Position numbers and translations under genes: made by a program. The notes beneath the pieces were generated by a model, which did no database searches, was not told the DNA's origin, and saw nothing but the letters and a program-made list of their open reading frames with translations. Positions 23,986 to 30,662 of a DNA stretch of 32,000 bases are shown in pieces. Where the stretch lies: NCBI RefSeq assembly GCF_000619845.1, contig NZ_JHUX01000004.1, positions 60,001 through 92,000 of the forward strand, read 5' to 3'. This DNA is from Alkanindiges illinoisensis DSM 15370 (GTDB taxonomy: Bacteria > Pseudomonadota > Gammaproteobacteria > Pseudomonadales > Moraxellaceae). Numbering within the stretch: position 1 is the stretch's first letter; each line of letters starts with the position of its first letter.

Positions 23986-24013
23986 TGGACAAAATCATAA
24001 AAATCGCTACACT
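23986..24013 (+). promoter_or_regulatory. Candidate promoter of tRNA-Pro
   Basis: TGGACA (23986-23991), a 16-nt spacer, then TACACT (24008-24013), about 11 nt upstream of the mature tRNA 5' end. Confidence 0.35.
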
Positions 24014-24022
24014 AGCTGACTG

Positions 24023-24101
<79 letters not shown>

Positions 24102-24168
24102 ATATAATCAATAAGTTAGATCAAAAATAAGAAAAACAGAAAAAGCAAAACGGTTAAATTTTAATCAT

Positions 24169-24195
24169 TCACCTACACATTCACCTACACTTTTG
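24169..24195 (+). repeat. Putative arm-type integrase binding sites (P' arm): tandem CACCTACAC units
   Basis: The 27-bp tcacctacacattcacctacacttttg is identical to 29968-29994. Internally it is two 10-bp units (minus strand GTGTAGGTGA-at-GTGTAGGTGA) with 12-bp periodicity, 64 bp from the core. Confidence 0.6.
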
Positions 24196-24254
24196 ATAAG
24201 GCTTAACTGCTATTAATAAAATTTCTTTAATTAATTGCTATATTCAAATTTTAC

Positions 24255-24638
24255 TTAAACCAGCTCAACTTTAAACAGCCTGTCAAACTCAGCATTGTTT
24301 TGTTCTTTGCGTCTGGCTTGTGGGGTCTCTAGTCCTAACAGTTTGGCTTTACTCATCGTTGCGCTAATTGCTGCGTTACACTGGCCATTCGCCAATGCCT
24401 GTACTCTCGTGGTTTCTAATTCTGTCAGTATGTCATGTAGCGTTATTTGTATTTCCTGGCTGGCCTGTTGCTGCCTTGCCTCAATGCTGCTTTTGATCTG
24501 GGGCTGCCTTAATAGTCGGCTGGCCTGCTGCTGGGCTGTTCTTGCGCTATAGCCTGCACTGATGGCGGCTTGCGTACCATTGCTGGATATAAGGTACTCG
24601 TCAATAAAGCGTTGCTGTATCGCGCTTATGCGGCTCAT
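24255..24638 (-). CDS. terS: Phage terminase small subunit (Terminase_2/P27 family)
   Basis: 127 aa. QQRFIDEYLISSNGTQAAISAGYSARTAQQQASRLLRQPQIKSSIE matches the conserved N-terminal HTH of Terminase_2 small subunits (FxxEYLxxxNxTQAAIxAGYSxxTA...LL). No large subunit is anywhere in the window. Confidence 0.88.
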   Translation of the reverse strand: MSRISAIQQRFIDEYLISSNGTQAAISAGYSARTAQQQASRLLRQPQIKSSIEARQQQASQEIQITLHDILTELETTRVQALANGQCNAAISATMSKAKLLGLETPQARRKEQNNAEFDRLFKVELV

Positions 24639-25266
24639 GGCTGGCCTGCCCCTAGCAATTGAAAGCTGATCTGATTATAGCCTGTTTTGCTTTGTTGTTA
24701 TTTTCAGCTATTCACGCCATGCGGCAAGGTTTTTCGGATATCAAAACGTGTTTAAACAGGTAAAGCCCTGTTCAGGTTTTAACGGTCTGGCTCTAGGTTC
24801 GCACCCAAGTTCGCACCAAAACCGCTATTTTTTGAGTTCACAAAAAAGGCAATGTTCAGGTTCAAAACCCGATAAAACGGCTTTTTAAAAGACTACCCCA
24901 TGAAAGGCGGGTTTTTGAGTTTTGGGAGTCCATAAAAAGGACGGGATAGCGGGAATCACACGGCTATTTTCGGACGCCTTTACGCGCGCGTACTGCTCCG
25001 AAAATTCACGCCCTTAGTAAATTGCAGGGTGTACGTGCGGGGCAGTTGAATTTTTAGACATCGTAGAACCTGATAAAACCTATTGTTTAACCCTCTACCC
25101 TCAGCTTTAAGACAAGCTAGATCAAACGGCTGTTAACTTTTGCAAAAGGGATTTTTTTTATACATGGGTTGGCCAGTGGTCTAGGATAAACAAGCCGCTA
25201 TACATTGAATATGCCCCCCCTCAATAACCCCTATACCTATGGTAGATTCTAAGAAGGTGTACAGAT

Positions 25267-25397
25267 ATTGGACGCAATGACTGTTTAAAAATAGCGTATT
25301 GAGTTCAATCATTGAACGCAATACTGCCTGTTTTGGTCACTATATAAACAATGCGTCCAGTTATTGAACGCATCGGATAAAAAAAATGGACGCATGA
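25267..25397. repeat. Iteron cluster (5 copies of TGRACGCA); candidate replication origin of the element
   Basis: attGGACGCAatg 25267, attGAACGCAata 25311, inverted caaTGCGTCCag 25349, attGAACGCAtcg 25363, aaTGGACGCAtga 25386. An AT-rich tatataaaca lies between them. The cluster sits immediately 3' of the Rep-like gene. Confidence 0.55.
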
Positions 25398-25417
25398 TCT
25401 ATTTTTACAGTGTGCTA

Positions 25418-25849
25418 TCAGGCGACTGCTGGCCGCCAGTGCAACCATTTTGCAGATGGGGCTTGAGTTGCTTTTACTTTACCGTCACACCCATCCACTG
25501 CCCATAAGGTAATAGCGTAAAGATTAGGCCTATTCTTGTCGGTTTCGCAAAAATTGACAGTCCGTGTTTGTTCAATCAAGCCGCGTGCCAATAGCTCATC
25601 AATGGCTTTTTTGAGCGTAGACTTTGAATTAATGCCCCATGCCTGAGCCTGGGTAAAGGTTGCACTCAAATCACCATTATTCACTGTAGTACCGCCCTTA
25701 AAGCGAACCTGTGACAAGATCAGCATAAATACCTTGTTTGCCATTGGCGACAGGGTGCGGAAACTCTCACTGTTCACAAGGCACGCAGGCAAAGGGTAAA
25801 AAATACCATTAACCCGCCGTTTGCTGTGCTTACTGCTTAGCTTGCTCAT
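25418..25849 (-). CDS. Putative winged-helix replication initiator (phage O / Rep N-terminal-like)
   Basis: The likely start is ATG 25849 (MSKLSSKHSKRR...), preceded by a GGGGG SD; 143 aa. LSPMANKVFMLILSQVRF...NGDLSATFTQAQAWGINSKSTLKKAIDELLARGLIEQ follows the wHTH pattern of phage replication-O-type initiators. The family call is from memory and weak. Confidence 0.45.
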   Translation of the reverse strand: MSKLSSKHSKRRVNGIFYPLPACLVNSESFRTLSPMANKVFMLILSQVRFKGGTTVNNGDLSATFTQAQAWGINSKSTLKKAIDELLARGLIEQTRTVNFCETDKNRPNLYAITLWAVDGCDGKVKATQAPSAKWLHWRPAVA

Positions 25850-25917
25850 TATGCCCCCATAGGGTGTAGCAGGTAGCAGCATAAAACTACGCTGCTACCT
25901 TCCTACTGCCCATGATT

Positions 25918-26358
25918 TTACTCATTCATTAGGGCATCATTTGCCGCGCCAGTATTAAAACCACGCCAAAAGTATCGCGCTACTCTAGGGTGTGGCCTGC
26001 CATTAAGGTCAAAGGCTTCACCATACACAGTAGTAAAGCAGTGTCCTTTGTCCTTTAGGCCTTTAATGCGTGCGGCTAGATGACAGACATTAAGCAGGGC
26101 ATCAGCTTCAAAACGGTTCAAGCCTGAGCCTGAGCTTTGCAGCATTTCAAGAACACGCTGTTCTTGGGCTTCACGCGATAACGATGAATTAGGCTTGACT
26201 GCCTGAGTTATCGTGCTACATTGACGTCGTTCAAGGCCTGCTTGCACTGGTAAATCTTGAGCGGCCTGTGTGTGGCTGTCACCACGCAAAGGCCACTGAT
26301 TCGGCTGCTTATATGCAGCCGTTTCTTTGTGCCCAAAATTATCTACTCGCTCATTCAT
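25918..26358 (-). CDS. Helix-turn-helix protein (HTH_39-like winged helix)
   Basis: The likely start is ATG 26358 (MNERVDNF...) with a GGGGG SD; it overlaps the upstream stop by 8 nt. The C-terminal half RVLEMLQSSGSGLNRFEADALLNVCHLAARIKGLKDKGHCFTTV resembles the pattern xLxxxEAxxxLxxxxLAARIxELRxxGxxIxT. Confidence 0.5.
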   Translation of the reverse strand: MNERVDNFGHKETAAYKQPNQWPLRGDSHTQAAQDLPVQAGLERRQCSTITQAVKPNSSLSREAQEQRVLEMLQSSGSGLNRFEADALLNVCHLAARIKGLKDKGHCFTTVYGEAFDLNGRPHPRVARYFWRGFNTGAANDALMNE

Positions 26359-26611
26359 GGCCTGCCCCCTGTGTGTTGGCATCATTCCTAGTGATGCCGT
26401 CTAGAATCTTTTGCAGTGTGCCTAGATGGATGACAAAGGCATTACTCCCATTTGCCAGTAGTCGGGTAATTTGTTTAGCCTCATTAATTGCAGCGCATGG
26501 GGTCATATCGACAAATACAACAGGCTCATCATTCATAACCGCATCAGCATAGCTTTCATGTTCCAGCACTGGCCGATACTCAACCACTAAAAACTCGTGA
26601 AACTGGCTCAT
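26351..26611 (-). CDS. Hypothetical protein (86 aa)
   Basis: The start overlaps the upstream stop (ATGA) and the stop overlaps the next start. It has a GGGGG SD and a coding-like composition, but I recognise no family. Confidence 0.55.
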   Translation of the reverse strand: MSQFHEFLVVEYRPVLEHESYADAVMNDEPVVFVDMTPCAAINEAKQITRLLANGSNAFVIHLGTLQKILDGITRNDANTQGAGHE

Positions 26612-26742
26612 GGGCTAACCCCCTGTAATGCAGGCATGACAGTTGAATAGCGCGCTTGCTGTGCGCTACAAGTCGTTAAAAAGGCAAAGCACAACATGCC
26701 TAGACAAATGGACTGTAAAACCTGAATTAAAAAATTATTCAT
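26608..26742 (-). CDS. Small hydrophobic peptide (44 aa), possible membrane or lipoprotein-like
   Basis: ATG 26742 (MNNFLIQVLQSICLGMLCFAFLTTCSAQQ...) overlaps the alpA stop by 8 nt (ATGAATAA) behind a GGGGG SD. It has one hydrophobic helix ending in a weak lipobox-like LTTC. The track's longer version (to 26796) overlaps alpA and is unlikely. Confidence 0.4.
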   Translation of the reverse strand: MNNFLIQVLQSICLGMLCFAFLTTCSAQQARYSTVMPALQGVSP

Positions 26743-26962
26743 GGTCTGCCCCCGCATCTGTCGTAGCAAGGGACTGCAAAAATGAATCAATATCACTTTG
26801 CAGCCATGCAGTGACGTTGGCCGATAATTTATAAGGCTTGGGATATTTGCCTGACTTTACACCGCGCCACCAGCTTGAACGGCTGACAGGATAACGGCTT
26901 AGAATTTCAGGTAGGCGCACAAAACGGACGTTTGCGCCTGTAGGGAGTGTATTGTGTTGCAT
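26735..26962 (-). CDS. alpA: AlpA-family phage regulatory protein / excisionase-like HTH
   Basis: 75 aa. RFVRLPEILSRYPVSRSSWWRGVKSGKYPKPYKLSANVTAW matches the Phage_AlpA (PF05930) consensus (rLpeV...g.SrstiyrlvkxGxFPxPxKlgxrxxxW). Confidence 0.9.
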   Translation of the reverse strand: MQHNTLPTGANVRFVRLPEILSRYPVSRSSWWRGVKSGKYPKPYKLSANVTAWLQSDIDSFLQSLATTDAGADHE

Positions 26963-27035
26963 GGTGAGCTATGCCCTTGTGTTATACGGTATGAACCGCG
27001 TTAAGGGCATCATGCAGGATTGATTTTAATTATTG

Positions 27036-27088
27036 TTCCAAGTTAAAAAGTTTCATTCCAATTTGGAATTAGCTTTTCTTATTTGGAA
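27036..27088. promoter_or_regulatory. Four-half-site dyad-symmetric operator-like element upstream of alpA
   Basis: TTCCAA(27036)-N14-TTCCAA(27056)-T-TTGGAA(27063)-N14-TTGGAA(27083). The central 15 bp ATTCCAAtTTGGAAT is a perfect palindrome. The right half is part of a 20-bp tandem duplication (27061-27080 and 27081-27100, 19/20). Confidence 0.5.
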
Positions 27089-28432
27089 TTAGCCTTTCTT
27101 TTTTCTTTTTCGCTCAGGATATAGATGTGAAACAATGGTTTCATCTTTTTCAGGCATTGGTAAACCAGCAGCATAAGAACGTAATGCACCAGCAGCCTTA
27201 AAAGGCTCATCCAGATCAAGCTCAGCCATCATCCGTAGAGCTTTCAAAGTGTAGCTGCGTTCTTTACTAAAGCGCTCCTTTGTATTTGTCACCTCAGATT
27301 CACTAGATGTTTTACTTGCCAACTGGCTCTCCAGCTCTGCTATACGCTGCTTTAATGCGTGATTTTCAGCCTGCAATTGTTCTGATTGGCGCTGGTTGTG
27401 TGCATCATCTGGCTTGCTTATGGTAGGGCTACCTATTGTGTCTGATTTTTCTTTTAAAAGGACTTTGGGGTTTAATAAATTCAGAACATCTTCTACTGGA
27501 AAAACCATATCTATAGCTTTGAAAGGAAGACCATGTGTATGGCTGGTTATATATCTAAAATAATTTTCTTCGGGAAATATTTTCTTATTTTCTTCATACC
27601 CAATATTATAAGTCTGGTCATAGTTATCAAATAAAGCAAAAGATTTTGACAGAAAATTGTTCTCGTCAAAGTCCTCACGAGATATTGAGAGTTCAAAAAT
27701 AGTATGGACGAAAGCATGTGTAATATTTATTGATGAAGCTTCATTAAGCTCATCACCAAAAAGGAATGGTTGGAAAATCTCCCTCAAATAAGGAGTTATA
27801 TATCCACTGAAACACAAATCCCCTTTTCCATTACCAAAACGATTTTGCCAAGCTAAAGCACCTTTATATAAAAAACATGGAAGTAAATTGCCCTTTAAAA
27901 TTAAGGAAATAAGGTCTGTAGCATTTAGCTTTAATTCAGTTTCTTTATTTAATAATAGTAAGGTCTCTGAAAGGTTCAAATACTTTTTAACATCCACATG
28001 CGTGTTTATGCCTGTGGATGTGTCCTTATAAGGTAAATTACTATTATTTTTTAACTCATCCTTGCCTTCTGGTAAATCTAAAGCTTTGATAATTGGGTGA
28101 TTAAAAAAATTTTCCTTTGTCCAAAACAGTTTATTAATTTGAATGATGGGATAAATAGGTATCAAATTAGCTTTTAAATACCTAATTCTGTCTCTAATAT
28201 TCCCTCCTATGCTCGCAAGCTCAAGGTAGTTGAAGGCTTTAACACCCATATCAACAGTAATTTCGTCAGCAGGAACAACCTCATTTAATCGATTTTTGTA
28301 ATATAAAGGAATTTTATGAAATTTTTGGGTAGTTAAATAAACTCCTAGATATGATTCATTATCGGACATGGCATCTAATAAAATCTCTACAGCGTCCCAA
28401 ACAAATATATATTTATTATCAATTATTTTCAT
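27089..28432 (-). CDS. Hypothetical 447-aa protein; AT-rich cargo in the int-alpA slot (candidate anti-phage, helper-interference or island regulator)
   Basis: A long uninterrupted ORF in a region of about 23-35% GC (hand counts of 60-nt lines), against about 43-48% for its neighbours. It has a C-terminal coiled coil QLQAENHALKQRIAELESQL and a basic tail ERKRKKKG. A weak motif is repeated three times (VWDAVEILL / NLSETLLLL / PVEDVLNLL). I recognise no catalytic motif. Confidence 0.7.
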   Translation of the reverse strand: MKIIDNKYIFVWDAVEILLDAMSDNESYLGVYLTTQKFHKIPLYYKNRLNEVVPADEITVDMGVKAFNYLELASIGGNIRDRIRYLKANLIPIYPIIQINKLFWTKENFFNHPIIKALDLPEGKDELKNNSNLPYKDTSTGINTHVDVKKYLNLSETLLLLNKETELKLNATDLISLILKGNLLPCFLYKGALAWQNRFGNGKGDLCFSGYITPYLREIFQPFLFGDELNEASSINITHAFVHTIFELSISREDFDENNFLSKSFALFDNYDQTYNIGYEENKKIFPEENYFRYITSHTHGLPFKAIDMVFPVEDVLNLLNPKVLLKEKSDTIGSPTISKPDDAHNQRQSEQLQAENHALKQRIAELESQLASKTSSESEVTNTKERFSKERSYTLKALRMMAELDLDEPFKAAGALRSYAAGLPMPEKDETIVSHLYPERKRKKKG

Positions 28433-28580
28433 AAAGCACCCTAATGCTAACTCCTAAACCTTATAAAACTTGATACTTAAAAACAGATTGTTAGGTAAAT
28501 AAGCGTTTAGGGAATACTTACTTGTCGGCTGGCCTGCCTATACCTAACAAGATAAATATAGCATGTGATCTAGTTGTTGA

Positions 28581-29909
28581 TTAACCTAATTTATTAAATG
28601 GAATAATCTCGCCTTGCATGGCATTAGGGTCTGACAAATAGGCCAGCCGTGCGCCTAGCAGTTCAAACGCGCGTTTTTGCTCTATGGCTGCGTCCCACTG
28701 GTTATAGGTCAGGTTTAACATGTCATCATCAGTATGGTTTAAGCACTTGCGCCTGATCTCGTTACTCACGCGCTGGCTGGCCATTACATTTGAAGCAGTA
28801 CGGCGTAGATCATGCGCTGTCCAGTGGCCGCCTTCCATTACCAATGACGTGTTATCACTGGCACGGCCATTAATAGGGTTAGTGTTTTGGCGGTCTGTAA
28901 ACTGCTTGTTGAGACTTTTAACATCCACATGGCTTGAGCGGTCACGGTTTGGAAATAACCACACGGCATCATCCACAAACTGAAAAAGCTGGTTAAAACA
29001 GTTCACCGTAAAATCTGACAAGTAAATTAAATGTTCCTTGCCGTTTTTGGCATTTTCTTTTGGGATTTTCCACATTCGCGCCTGTAGGTCGATATGCTTA
29101 CGCTGGGCTTTTAGTAGCTCACCTACTCGCGCTGCTGTAGCCAGTAAGATCAAAGCAGCAAGTTTAGCTTTTGGTGTCAGTGAACAATTGGGTAAAGCCG
29201 TTTGTAAAAAATGGATTAATTCATGGTCTTTAAAATGCCGTGTCTTAATATTGGCCTTGCCACTAAAGGCAATCTTCTTTAAGTGGCTGGTTGGGTCATT
29301 TTCAAGTAAGCCTATCCCAATGCCATAGCCGTACATTTGCCGGATATAGCCAAGTAAACGGCCAGCCATGACTGGTGAACCACGTTCAACCACATTTTGG
29401 GTTACTTGTGCTATTTGCTGGCGTGTCACTTCATCAGCGTAGAGCTTGCCAAGAATCGGCAACATATCGTTTTTAAATAAATCATCGACAAACTTTCCGC
29501 CATCTTTGTGCTTGCTAATTACCGCTTTAAACCAACGGTCATAAAGCTGTTGCATGGTCAGGCGGTTATTCAATAGCTGTTGCTCACGTTCACTTTGCTG
29601 GCGTGCAAGTTCGGCTTGCTGTAACTGTTCTAATCTCAGGCGCTCACGTTCGGCTAATGGGTCAAGTGTTGTTTCAGCGTTTCGCCTTTCCATGTTTAAA
29701 CGGCTGGCTTCAGCACGTGCCGCAACCAGTGACATATCAGGATAGTAGCCAAGCGGTAGCCATCGGGTTTTATTGTCGATCTTATAACGAAAGTAGAATC
29801 GTTTTACGCCTGTTGGTGTCACTTCAAGCACCAAGCCCTCACCATCGGACAAGGTGGTTTTCTTTTCTACCTGAATTTTCTTTATTTTTAATTCAGTCAA
29901 TTTGCCCAT
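28581..29909 (-). CDS. int: Tyrosine recombinase, P4-type integrase with an N-terminal arm-DNA-binding (DUF4102-like) domain
   Basis: 442 aa. The N-terminus LSDGEGLVLEVTPTGVKRFYFRYKIDNKTRWLPLGYYPDMSLVAARAEA is typical of the DUF4102 arm-binding domain. Catalytic motifs are present: ATAARVGELL (Arg), HDLRRTASNVM (HxxR) and LNHTDDDMLNLTYNQ (His...Tyr). Confidence 0.93.
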   Translation of the reverse strand: MGKLTELKIKKIQVEKKTTLSDGEGLVLEVTPTGVKRFYFRYKIDNKTRWLPLGYYPDMSLVAARAEASRLNMERRNAETTLDPLAERERLRLEQLQQAELARQQSEREQQLLNNRLTMQQLYDRWFKAVISKHKDGGKFVDDLFKNDMLPILGKLYADEVTRQQIAQVTQNVVERGSPVMAGRLLGYIRQMYGYGIGIGLLENDPTSHLKKIAFSGKANIKTRHFKDHELIHFLQTALPNCSLTPKAKLAALILLATAARVGELLKAQRKHIDLQARMWKIPKENAKNGKEHLIYLSDFTVNCFNQLFQFVDDAVWLFPNRDRSSHVDVKSLNKQFTDRQNTNPINGRASDNTSLVMEGGHWTAHDLRRTASNVMASQRVSNEIRRKCLNHTDDDMLNLTYNQWDAAIEQKRAFELLGARLAYLSDPNAMQGEIIPFNKLG

Positions 29910-29967
29910 TTTTTAATGCCTTTGCGTCGCCTGTTGCAGATATTGCAAGGGGTTGATAGGCCAGAAC

Positions 29968-29994
29968 TCACCTACACATTCACCTACACTTTTG
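29968..29994 (+). repeat. Putative arm-type integrase binding sites (P arm), the second copy of the 27-bp repeat
   Basis: Identical to 24169-24195. It lies between the int start codon (29909) and the attR core, 124 bp from the core. Confidence 0.6.
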
Positions 29995-30118
29995 CATAGG
30001 TTTTAATGACATTCTATAGGACGGCATGAAATAAGCAATTAAGTTAAAAACATTAAAAACAATCACTTAGTAATTTAATGAAACTGCATGATACTGTATA
30101 AAGTCATCATTATCATTT

Positions 30119-30166
30119 ATGGGGTGCAAGGGGTCGAAGGTTCAAATCCTTCCGTTCCGACCAATA
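30119..30166 (+). repeat. attR core: duplicated 3' end of tRNA-Pro (a non-functional partial copy)
   Basis: 48/48 identity to 24057-24104. It lacks the 5' 32 nt of the tRNA. Confidence 0.95.
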
Positions 30167-30662
30167 AAATCAATGATTTAAGCCATAATAACAAACTGCT
30201 ATTGCAAATTTTGCAAAATAGTTGCAAAATCAAATTTGTGTTTATCCCCTCAACTTATTAATCTTTTTTCTTTAAATGTTAAATAAGCATTCATCGTATT
30301 ACATTGCATCAGTAATTCACCTAGATCTAAAAACCATAGCAGCTTCTCCGTTGGTATGATCAATCGCGCTGATCTCTTTGCTTTAATTTATTCAATTGAA
30401 TTATTTATATTTATTCTTTCCTATAGTTAAAAACAATAAACCAGTCACATTAGTGATTAATCTGCATAAACTTCTTGTATAGCTCTGCTTATTAGCGATG
30501 GTTTTATTGATAAATCTGCCATTTTTTTCTCATTTTCTTATTTCTCTATAAACAGTTCACAGTCGTTTTGTCTTTTACCAGATGAACTGATCCTGAACTG
30601 ATACTGGCAAGCAGCCGGATCAGGTATATCTTTAAAACAAGTTTAAAAAGGAATTCAGGCAC

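Follow-up and report, generated by a model that had tools for sequence, protein, structure and literature searches.

A mosaic gene held between int and alpA as a probable core component of small AlpA-type phage satellites in Moraxellaceae

We analysed a 32,000-nucleotide (nt) stretch of the genome of Alkanindiges illinoisensis DSM 15370 (contig NZ_JHUX01000004.1, positions 60,001 to 92,000; hereafter the window), which carries a 6.06-kb island (24057-30180, length between repeat starts) at a tRNA-Pro(GGG) gene (24025-24101). Its genes are all located on the minus strand in the order int-X-alpA-HTH_39-rep-terS, with two small open reading frames (ORFs) listed after alpA, and the subject of this report is X (ORF447), the gene between the integrase and alpA. 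An int-alpA arrangement, a replication module, the packaging gene TerS and att repeats are shared with Gram-negative satellites of the phage-inducible chromosomal island (PICI) type, although typical PICIs are larger than this 6-kb island. No primase was found in the island, which carries HTH_39, rep-O-like and TerS proteins, and by its gene content it is a minimal AlpA-type phage satellite. Its features are given below (P numbers denote proteins of the X family, L numbers denote loci).

24057 to 24118, plus strand: attL, the 3' part of tRNA-Pro(GGG), a 62-nt direct repeat.
30119 to 30180, plus strand: attR, the second copy of the 62-nt repeat, 95% identical.
28581 to 29909, minus strand: int, tyrosine integrase (Arm-DNA-bind_3, Phage_int_M, Phage_integrase).
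28555 to 28563, minus strand: extended -10-like box TGCTATATT, about 7 nt upstream of stem P1 of the leader, putative promoter of X.
28488 to 28550, minus strand: candidate structured leader RNA of 63 nt (covariation, covariance model).
28439 to 28459, minus strand: complements of the leader P3 loop, GUUUAGG (28453-28459) and UUAGGG (28439-28444), the second overlapping the Shine-Dalgarno region.
27089 to 28432, minus strand: X (ORF447), 447 amino acids (aa), ATG start preceded by AGGGUG, member of an uncharacterised mosaic family.
27998 to 28432, minus strand: domain A of X, aa 1-145, 30% guanine-cytosine (GC), common to P0002/3/5/7/10/11.
27443 to 27997, minus strand: domain B of X, aa 146-330, 31% GC, common to P0004/6/8 and weakly to P0009-type proteins.
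27293 to 27442, minus strand: linker and coiled coil of X, aa 331-380, 47% GC, PTISKPDDAHNQR..QLQAENHALKQRIAELESQ.
27089 to 27292, minus strand: C-terminal helical tail of X, aa 381-447, ending in ERKRKKKG, nearest to P0009 (47-48% identity).
27036 to 27089, minus strand: operator-like repeats between X and alpA, with the palindrome ATTCCAAATTGGAAT, a half-site and GCTAATTCCAAAT copies.
26971 to 27010, minus strand: hairpin ATGCCCTT...AAGGGCAT, just before the alpA start codon.
26735 to 26962, minus strand: alpA, AlpA family regulator/excisionase-like protein (PF05930, E 3e-7).
25918 to 26385, minus strand: HTH_39 protein.
25418 to 25882, minus strand: rep-O-like winged-helix protein.
24255 to 24638, minus strand: terS, small terminase subunit (Terminase_2).

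An earlier reading of this stretch, made from the letters without database searches (the sequence-only reading), had described X as the largest ORF of the element, which holds by five codons (447 aa against 442 aa for int), and its hand counts of GC content were reproduced (23.3% at 27901-27960, 26.7% at 28141-28200 and 46.7% at 27301-27360, with 44.8% in int); for comparison, host DNA in the window has 48.6% GC. When 27000-28600 was shuffled 2000 times, the longest frame free of stops had a mean of 77 codons and a maximum of 164; therefore, X is a real gene and not a chance frame. The whole ORF has 33.9% GC, and the low value is restricted to residues 1-330 (about 30-31%), the coiled coil (47%) and the tail (42%) resembling the rest of the island. 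X was also 5-15 points lower in GC than its neighbours in all six loci measured (31-38% vs 42-49%), and low GC is therefore a trait of the family and not the mark of a recent one-off acquisition. A decaying or functionless hitch-hiker, recently acquired from a low-GC donor, would agree with the very low GC, the absence of domains and the fact that X is effectively an ORFan by ordinary searches, but we regard it as highly improbable, since the 447-codon frame is intact in DNA of 30-34% GC and well beyond the shuffled maximum, low GC is family-wide, relatives with conserved motifs occupy the same slot of many islands, and a conserved, covarying leader RNA lies upstream.

Alignment divides X into four parts, and other members of the family have domain A only, domain B only, or domain A with a different middle domain, together with at least four families of tail. 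Domain A is marked by the motif W-x-K-x-D-F-F-N..P-I-K-A-L-D-L-P-E-G-K and domain B starts with KKYLNLSE...KGNLLPCFLYKGALAW, while the linker and coiled coil (PTIG.PDAAHYQR...QLQAEN.ALKQRI.ELEAQ) form both the best-conserved stretch of the family and a recombination junction. The coiled coil (about residues 343-374, with weak Pfam coiled-coil matches and an AlphaFold2 (AF2) helix with a predicted local distance difference test score (pLDDT) of about 75) and the basic tail had both been noticed earlier and are present.

Searches with X and its relatives against Pfam, NCBIfam, PHROG and PADLOC returned only coiled-coil noise (about residues 340-400 in X) and no enzymatic, toxin or membrane domain in X, consistent with the earlier statement that no enzymatic motif could be recognised. 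The sole match of X in PADLOC-DB 2.0 was HEC-07 (E 0.026, on the coiled coil), and none of 11 X-family members had a PADLOC match at E<=0.01. PDB sequence searches with X alone and with domain profiles gave nothing credible, the tail matched nothing in Pfam or PDB, and tblastn of X against phage and plasmid collections gave no match; homology to a housekeeping or known mobile-element function, which the sequence-only reading had named as a point to check, was thus not confidently found for X. A word-indexed search of 5.8 billion proteins, even with an alignment as query, returned no protein other than the identical one, a hypothetical protein in the Alkanindiges illinoisensis annotation, and exhaustive phmmer against 1.84 billion cluster representatives returned nine distant relatives (E 7e-11 to 2e-4), which are rare, mostly metagenomic and in no case carry a Pfam domain.

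Three segments of X had been read earlier as excisionase-like or HTH_17-like helix-turn-helix (HTH) sequences. The strings are there, but homology to HTH_17/AlpA is statistically unsupported: X against PF12728/PF05930 gave nothing in Pfam at E<=10, and, in hhalign comparisons with an alignment of AlpA proteins from the islands themselves, the start of domain B reached a probability of 0.4% and domain A one of 0.5%. An internal duplication (domain A vs domain B) was rejected because hhalign was not significant. AF2 reached pLDDT 38 for X as a single sequence and 57 overall with an 11-sequence alignment (domain A and the first part of B scoring about 70-80), and it ordered residues 8-54 and 151-196 as beta-alpha-alpha-beta-beta (pLDDT about 65-80), in coincidence with the HTH_17-like strings. 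In the models these starts resemble, by topology only, the winged helix of excisionases; Foldseek of the X model against PDB and BFVD gave no match better than E 0.6.

In all X relatives with a readable context, the gene was flanked on its own strand by a tyrosine integrase directly upstream and an AlpA/Xis-like gene downstream, as follows.

L001/2: slot gene P0009.
L003-5: slot gene P0010.
L006: slot gene P0011.
L007/8: slot gene P0007.
L009: slot gene P0003.
L041/42: slot gene P0002.
L043: slot gene P0005.
L044 and L045: slot genes P0004 and P0008, respectively, with an Xis-like gene downstream.

The integrases of these islands belong to five families with 21-35% mutual identity, and their replication modules are of four types (HTH_39 + rep, DUF927, DUF3631, DUF3987). 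When AlpA homologues were used for retrieval, and X was not, L033/35, L034, L039 and L037/38 were found to carry a P0009-like X directly upstream of alpA. Searches of genomes, viral contigs and metagenomes with the X alignment gave no confirmed relative, the window integrase as sole query gave no related loci in genomes, and an integrase alignment gave one distant metagenome match and 22 phage integrases (<=34% identity) without the leader motif described below. The sequence-only reading had placed X in an accessory slot where single-gene anti-phage systems are swapped; this did not stand, because every readable relative keeps the int-X-alpA/xis position. The conserved slot and conserved scaffold argue for a core function of X, and, judged from this synteny, X appears to belong, at a conserved position, to the core of one group of small AlpA-type phage satellites in Moraxellaceae and not to their accessory cargo.

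The island at L001 is a true sister of the window island (int 71%, alpA 79%, rep-like 85% and TerS 57% identical), while the two X proteins are recognisably similar only in their last 60 residues. In L001 and L034 X begins 7 nt past the int stop codon, against a gap of 148 nt in the window. A second integrase of L001 (12964-14265), which is 54% identical to that of the window, directly follows the first island in tandem; this suggests either satellites in tandem or the degraded remains of another element at that site.

Comparison of closely related islands located the variability inside X. L034 and L033 share 89-91% DNA identity in int and over the initial 60 X codons, are unalignable at X codons ~61-222, and have 97% identity in the downstream region through alpA, HTH_39 and rep. 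L041 equals L007 (97.6-97.7%) in the int 3' end, spacer, coiled coil, tail and alpA, and has the N-terminal 700 nt of X from an L006-like X (98.8% identical), with crossovers in the conserved spacer (leader) and in the coiled-coil coding region. These alignments indicate an exchange of in-frame cassettes within a conserved X scaffold and not of whole unrelated genes. Hence the island comparison proposed earlier came out in two ways: X is indeed variable beside conserved int and alpA, but the variability consists of cassettes within the gene and not of gene swapping, which, together with zero PADLOC matches among 11 members and Type ISP cargo at the far end of related islands, does not bear out the defence-hotspot framing. 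Both the exchange of sequence between elements at X and its description as the undescribed function of the island were upheld. Cargo in these islands is otherwise recognisable: a Type ISP restriction enzyme of ~1660 aa follows the rep module in L033 (11121-16115), L034 (5853-10844) and L037 (3841-8814), in the position of the window terS and accompanied by WG_beta_rep or 477-aa genes. A reverse-strand Sel1-repeat gene lies between int and X in L033 (5289-6865) and L035 (1572-3148) together with a 67-aa duplicate of the int C-terminus, so the int-X junction itself can accept cargo or insertions.

Such cassette-like hypervariability beside near-identical flanks might also be that of a single-gene anti-phage or helper/competitor-interference effector, e.g. 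an abortive-infection trigger or phage-protein titrator, in which the variable N-terminal modules would be the target recognition of an arms race and the leader would silence a harmful protein until infection. Its AT-rich composition, the apparent gating of its translation by an anti-Shine-Dalgarno leader and the absence of a shown DNA-binding domain fit this explanation, and satellites are known carriers of defence, as in the Type ISP enzyme of sister islands and up2 of the Vibrio satellite PICMI (phage-inducible chromosomal minimalist island; PMC10803314). We nevertheless doubt it, while giving it real weight, because islands with five integrase families and four types of replication module retain the same slot and scaffold, known hotspots hold unrelated whole genes and not in-frame cassette swaps, PADLOC found nothing among the 11 members, enzymatic, toxin and membrane domains are absent in the scans given above, and in related islands the defence cargo that can be recognised is located at the other end.

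X had been credited earlier with its own upstream intergenic region containing inverted repeats, and the 148-nt spacer (28433-28580) does hold a conserved, covarying stem-loop structure. In the 63-nt leader of the window, stem P1 (7 bp) encloses P2 (GGC-AGGCCA-GCC) and P3 (8 bp, loop AUUCCCUAAAC); throughout the family P2 reads GGN-[C/A]GGCCA-NCC and the P3 loop has 11-13 nt. The block is nearly invariant between islands whose integrases are ~30% identical, and the motif was also located in L003 (7904-7966), L006 (7902-7965), L044 (249-307), L045 (92-159) and L052 (5996-6052). Among six distinct sequences 98% of cells were paired and 8 of 18 pairs had compensatory double changes, values that 0 of 500 shuffles reached, with slid controls giving <=2. 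Covariance model R1 scored 86 bits in sense and 14 bits in antisense, and the conserved G-U pairs fit the int/X sense strand only. A cmscan of 24000-30300 against Rfam (E<=10) gave only tRNA-Pro and chance-level matches, none at 28488-28550. A thermodynamically exceptional fold was discarded (z-score -0.7), the support being covariation and not energy, and so was a sigma-70 promoter or intrinsic terminator, neither of which was found in a consensus scan.

In ~500 kb of DNA scanned, including Acinetobacter baumannii chromosomes, the motif was present only upstream of slot genes; a degenerate pattern found it in six IMG/VR contigs, while a narrower exact pattern gave 0 matches in viral contigs. 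It is absent in L001 and L034, where X is coupled to int. In A. baumannii X4-300 (NZ_CP064203.1, at about 2.49 Mb) the motif is flanked by an integrase with 60% identity to the L003 integrase and by a 263-aa slot gene, which is followed by xis-like, HTH_39, Bro-N and DUF927 primase genes. The 263-aa slot gene was negative in Pfam and had no BLAST similarity to X; therefore, the leader RNA marks the slot beyond the reach of protein similarity. The L052 sequence (NZ_CP064203.1), a 3.97-Mb A. baumannii replicon, is filed as 'plasmid unnamed1' and is evidently a chromosome, almost unannotated.

The P3 loop is complementary to two sites near the start of X; in each of the five variants tested, the distance from the end of its complement to the X start codon was 18-20 nt. 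Loop and complement covary (window CCUAAAC/GUUUAGG, L003 CCCUAAAC/GUUUAGGG, L006 UUCCCUAAAAA/UUUUUAGGGAA), and, read by eye, the same holds for L044 (CACCUUA with UAAGGU and AAGGUG), L045 (CCCC with two GGGG) and L049. The -10-like box upstream of P1 was not picked up by the two-hexamer consensus scan; a box TATATTTAGAT is kept at the same place in L006/7/9/43 and L049. With the box just before P1, the leader structure would form the 5' end of an X-specific transcript. We infer a cis-acting translational gate from these complementarities: X would be transcribed from its own promoter with a 63-nt structured 5' leader, the P3 loop of which would pair with the ribosome-binding region of X and so gate translation. 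In P4, the CI RNA confers immunity by the pairing of seqB with seqA/seqC. The X leader is likewise a structured satellite RNA with an exposed loop complementary to two sites on the same transcript, but its structure differs, both sites are downstream and overlap the ribosome-binding site, and it has no Rfam C4/CI match; by analogy, the leader might nonetheless be processed and act in trans as P4 CI RNA does.

The spacer between X and alpA contains a perfect palindrome ATTCCAAATTGGAAT (27055-27069) and, ~21 bp further on, a half-site TTGGAA (27036-27041) that overlaps a promoter-like ATGAAA-N16-AATAAT for alpA, as well as two copies of GCTAATTCCAAAT, the first over the X stop codon. The operator that had been proposed at 27036-27088 thus exists at the sequence level; the window contains three ATTCCAA heptamers (~6.8 expected), and all of them are located in 27055-27089. 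The ATTCCAAATTGGAAT/TTGGAA pair is conserved in L034, L033 and L039, and different palindromes occupy the same place in L001, L006/9/43 and L007/41. No part of X and no other island protein was found to track the operator type, and no copies of the X-proximal palindromes were found near attL or attR. Further, the hairpin before alpA is kept in L001, L033 and L034, its arms covary in L003 (ATGCCCTC/GAGGGCAT), and L006, L007 and L009 have a different nested hairpin at its position; it matched nothing in Rfam, the int-alpA family included, and may be an alpA leader or an element sequestering the ribosome-binding site.

These sites raise the question of a master repressor or immunity determinant resembling Stl of the Staphylococcus aureus pathogenicity islands (SaPIs), which would bind the X-alpA palindromes as a coiled-coil dimer and keep alpA off until a helper-phage protein, by binding the variable domains, relieved the repression. 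SaPI Stl adjoins int, has an N-terminal HTH, is divergent and modular between islands, is transcribed divergently from the genes that it represses and controls induction as a sensor of helper-phage proteins; Gram-negative AlpA-type elements are described as lacking it. X likewise adjoins int and is highly divergent and modular between islands, and sensing of helper proteins with control of induction is proposed for it. Moreover, the palindrome and half-site overlap the promoter-like -35/-10 of alpA, both variable domains have the winged-helix-like start in AF2, alpA is switched on specifically by the helper phage in Gram-negative PICIs (PMC11773190), and the palindromes of L006 and L007 differ while their AlpA proteins are 99% identical, so the sites are not AlpA's own. 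On the other hand, the operator type follows no part of X: the window and L034 share the operator while their N-termini are unrelated and their tails 39% identical, and L001 and L034 share the N-terminal 70 residues of X while their operators differ. X is co-directional with alpA and not divergent as in stl/str, its HTH is unproven, it has no sequence or structural similarity to SaPI Stl, and palindromes directly after a stop codon might act as weak terminators or be bound by a phage or host factor. We therefore consider such a repressor unlikely. The alternative offered by the sequence-only reading, a helper-sensing regulator analogous to Stl, accordingly survives in part: helper sensing fits better than the accessory anti-phage gene that it had put first, and the analogy to Stl itself is loose, given the co-directional transcription and the lack of a demonstrable HTH.

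The family of the tail matched the family of the integrase in 10 of 10 loci typed, while the N-terminal type and the alpA type did not, and P0002 and P0011 have identical N-terminal 140 residues and 99% identical alpA together with different tails and integrases. We take this match as no more than suggestive; exchange of N-terminal cassettes within two old backbones can explain it. Covariation of tail and integrase as proof of contact was downgraded, since the integrases of L001 and L034 are 99% identical and their tails 33% identical. Together with the location of X immediately 3' of int (7 nt past the int stop in L001 and L034), the tail-integrase match is what a recombination directionality or architectural cofactor acting with Int at the att sites, without a sensing role, might produce; the PICMI gene iolg is a precedent (PMC10803314), and the domain starts resemble excisionase-type winged helices by sequence reading and AF2 topology. 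But such a cofactor should co-evolve with Int and att, whereas integrases 95-99% identical carry X proteins with unalignable central or C-terminal parts, the palindromes have no copies near attL/attR, and AlpA already provides an Xis-like protein. We find this explanation slightly more doubtful than a repressor.

PICMI, the best-studied minimal AlpA-type satellite, occurs in Vibrio, measures 6.1 kb and has the genes int, iolg, alpA, up1, prim and up2. Its core consists of int, alpA and the primase, and its integration site adjoins fis (Barcia-Cruz et al. 2024, PMC10803314). Its iolg/icg, an integrase-overlapping (1-13 nt) or integrase-contiguous gene, comprises 13 unrelated families across 35 subfamilies and has no assigned function, but its deletion abolishes excision and transduction, and the authors proposed an Int-IOLG-AlpA excision complex (PMC10803314). 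X resembles iolg/icg in lying between int and alpA on the same strand of a ~6-kb minimal AlpA-type satellite, in lacking known domains, in its high diversity, in having defence cargo elsewhere in related islands and, in L001 and L034, in being near-contiguous with int (7-nt gap). The window island differs from PICMI in being located at tRNA-Pro and not at fis, in lacking a primase and in encoding TerS. The defence hotspot of PICMI is prim-fis, with the novel defence gene up2, while its int-alpA gene is needed for excision (PMC10803314), which speaks against the earlier idea that the position next to the integrase is the hotspot here. As summarised in PMC10803314 (Rousset 2022; Fillol-Salom 2022), the P4-like psu-int and PICI hotspots hold unrelated, complete and recognisable defence systems; X is similarly AT-rich, next to an integrase and exchanged by recombination at conserved flanks, but it keeps one scaffold, swaps in-frame modules and has no PADLOC match. 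We found no follow-up literature on PICMI iolg, a search by name yielding inositol dehydrogenase papers. PIME1 integrative mobilizable elements need a LuxR-family regulator, encoded in the regulatory region adjoining alpA, for their excision, and this protein has been proposed as a sensor of the helper element (bioRxiv 10.64898/2026.01.12.698999). Like this regulator gene, X is an extra gene beside alpA, although the PIME1 regulator is a recognisable LuxR HTH protein in divergent orientation and its helper is a conjugative plasmid and not a phage.

Cassette variability beside near-identical int and alpA suggests that the variable part of X faces something outside the island, most plausibly the helper or a competing phage, and the PICMI and PIME precedents point to the excision/induction switch. 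Therefore, from sequence comparison and these analogies, we tentatively favour, at clearly less than even confidence, a core role for X as a fast-evolving regulator or cofactor of induction or excision at the interface with the helper. X would then be a non-enzymatic adaptor in which a coiled coil and a short, helical and basic tail follow one or two N-terminal alpha/beta modules that can be exchanged (A and B in the window). The conserved coiled coil presumably dimerises, the variable modules would recognise a component of the helper phage (or of a competing phage), and the conserved parts would couple this recognition to the induction switch, i.e. Int/AlpA-dependent excision and/or alpA expression. 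Dimerisation, recognition of a phage component, action at excision or induction and translational gating are all steps that we infer. The fuller proposal, that X and its leader RNA form a new satellite induction switch in which the cassettes sense different helper proteins, the coiled coil and tail license Int/AlpA excision and the leader restrains translation, is a speculative extension that we think less probable than not by a wide measure.

Several observations weigh against X as a regulator or cofactor of this kind. A DNA-binding or protein-interaction domain could not be demonstrated in X by Pfam, PDB or hhalign, the best AF2 model has pLDDT 57 and Foldseek found nothing with it. The likeness to PICMI iolg/icg is positional, drawn from its published description, and, unlike iolg/icg, X of the window lies 148 nt from int with its own leader RNA. 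A toxic anti-phage effector would be just as compatible with the hypervariability and the tight control of translation, the association of tail and integrase is coarse and may reflect shared descent of the backbone, and the sample comprises ~13 distinct islands, several closely related and six found via X.

Other features of the island were also observed. Just inside its ends there is a 46-nt direct repeat (83% identical; 24169-24214 and 29968-30013) containing tandem TCACCTACAC, and a repeat TCACCTACACATTCACCTACAC is located just inside each end; both are probably integrase arm-type sites flanking the att core. The ~780 nt between terS and the rep-like gene (24640-25417) have no convincing ORF, contain inverted and direct repeats at 25300-25402 with a terminator-like hairpin at 25349-25375, and may be an origin or pac region. 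The octamer GGCTGGCC has 10 copies in the window (1.9 expected; 0 of 100 shuffles reached 10), seven in the island (24458, 24518, 24639, 28527, 28641, 28775, 29360) and three outside. Three copies are in or beside terS, where the octamer may be a pac or binding motif, and one copy forms P2 of the leader RNA.

This analysis adds the conserved synteny and cassette architecture of X, as well as a leader RNA motif that had not been described before. The locus gives a tractable way into two open questions, namely how AlpA-type Gram-negative satellites detect their helper phage and what role is played by the int-alpA gene (iolg/icg in PICMI) that is required for excision. The X family keeps its slot across very different satellites, including elements in A. 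baumannii chromosomes, and the leader RNA provides a compact genomic marker for such slots where protein similarity fails. Moreover, L041 vs L006/L007 and L033 vs L034 are natural cassette-swap variants and thus ready-made specificity experiments. Should X prove to be an effector, it would represent a new defence or interference protein controlled by an unusual RNA gate; and if the induction-switch reading is true, X would be the missing helper-sensing component of AlpA-type satellites and would explain the iolg-type genes.

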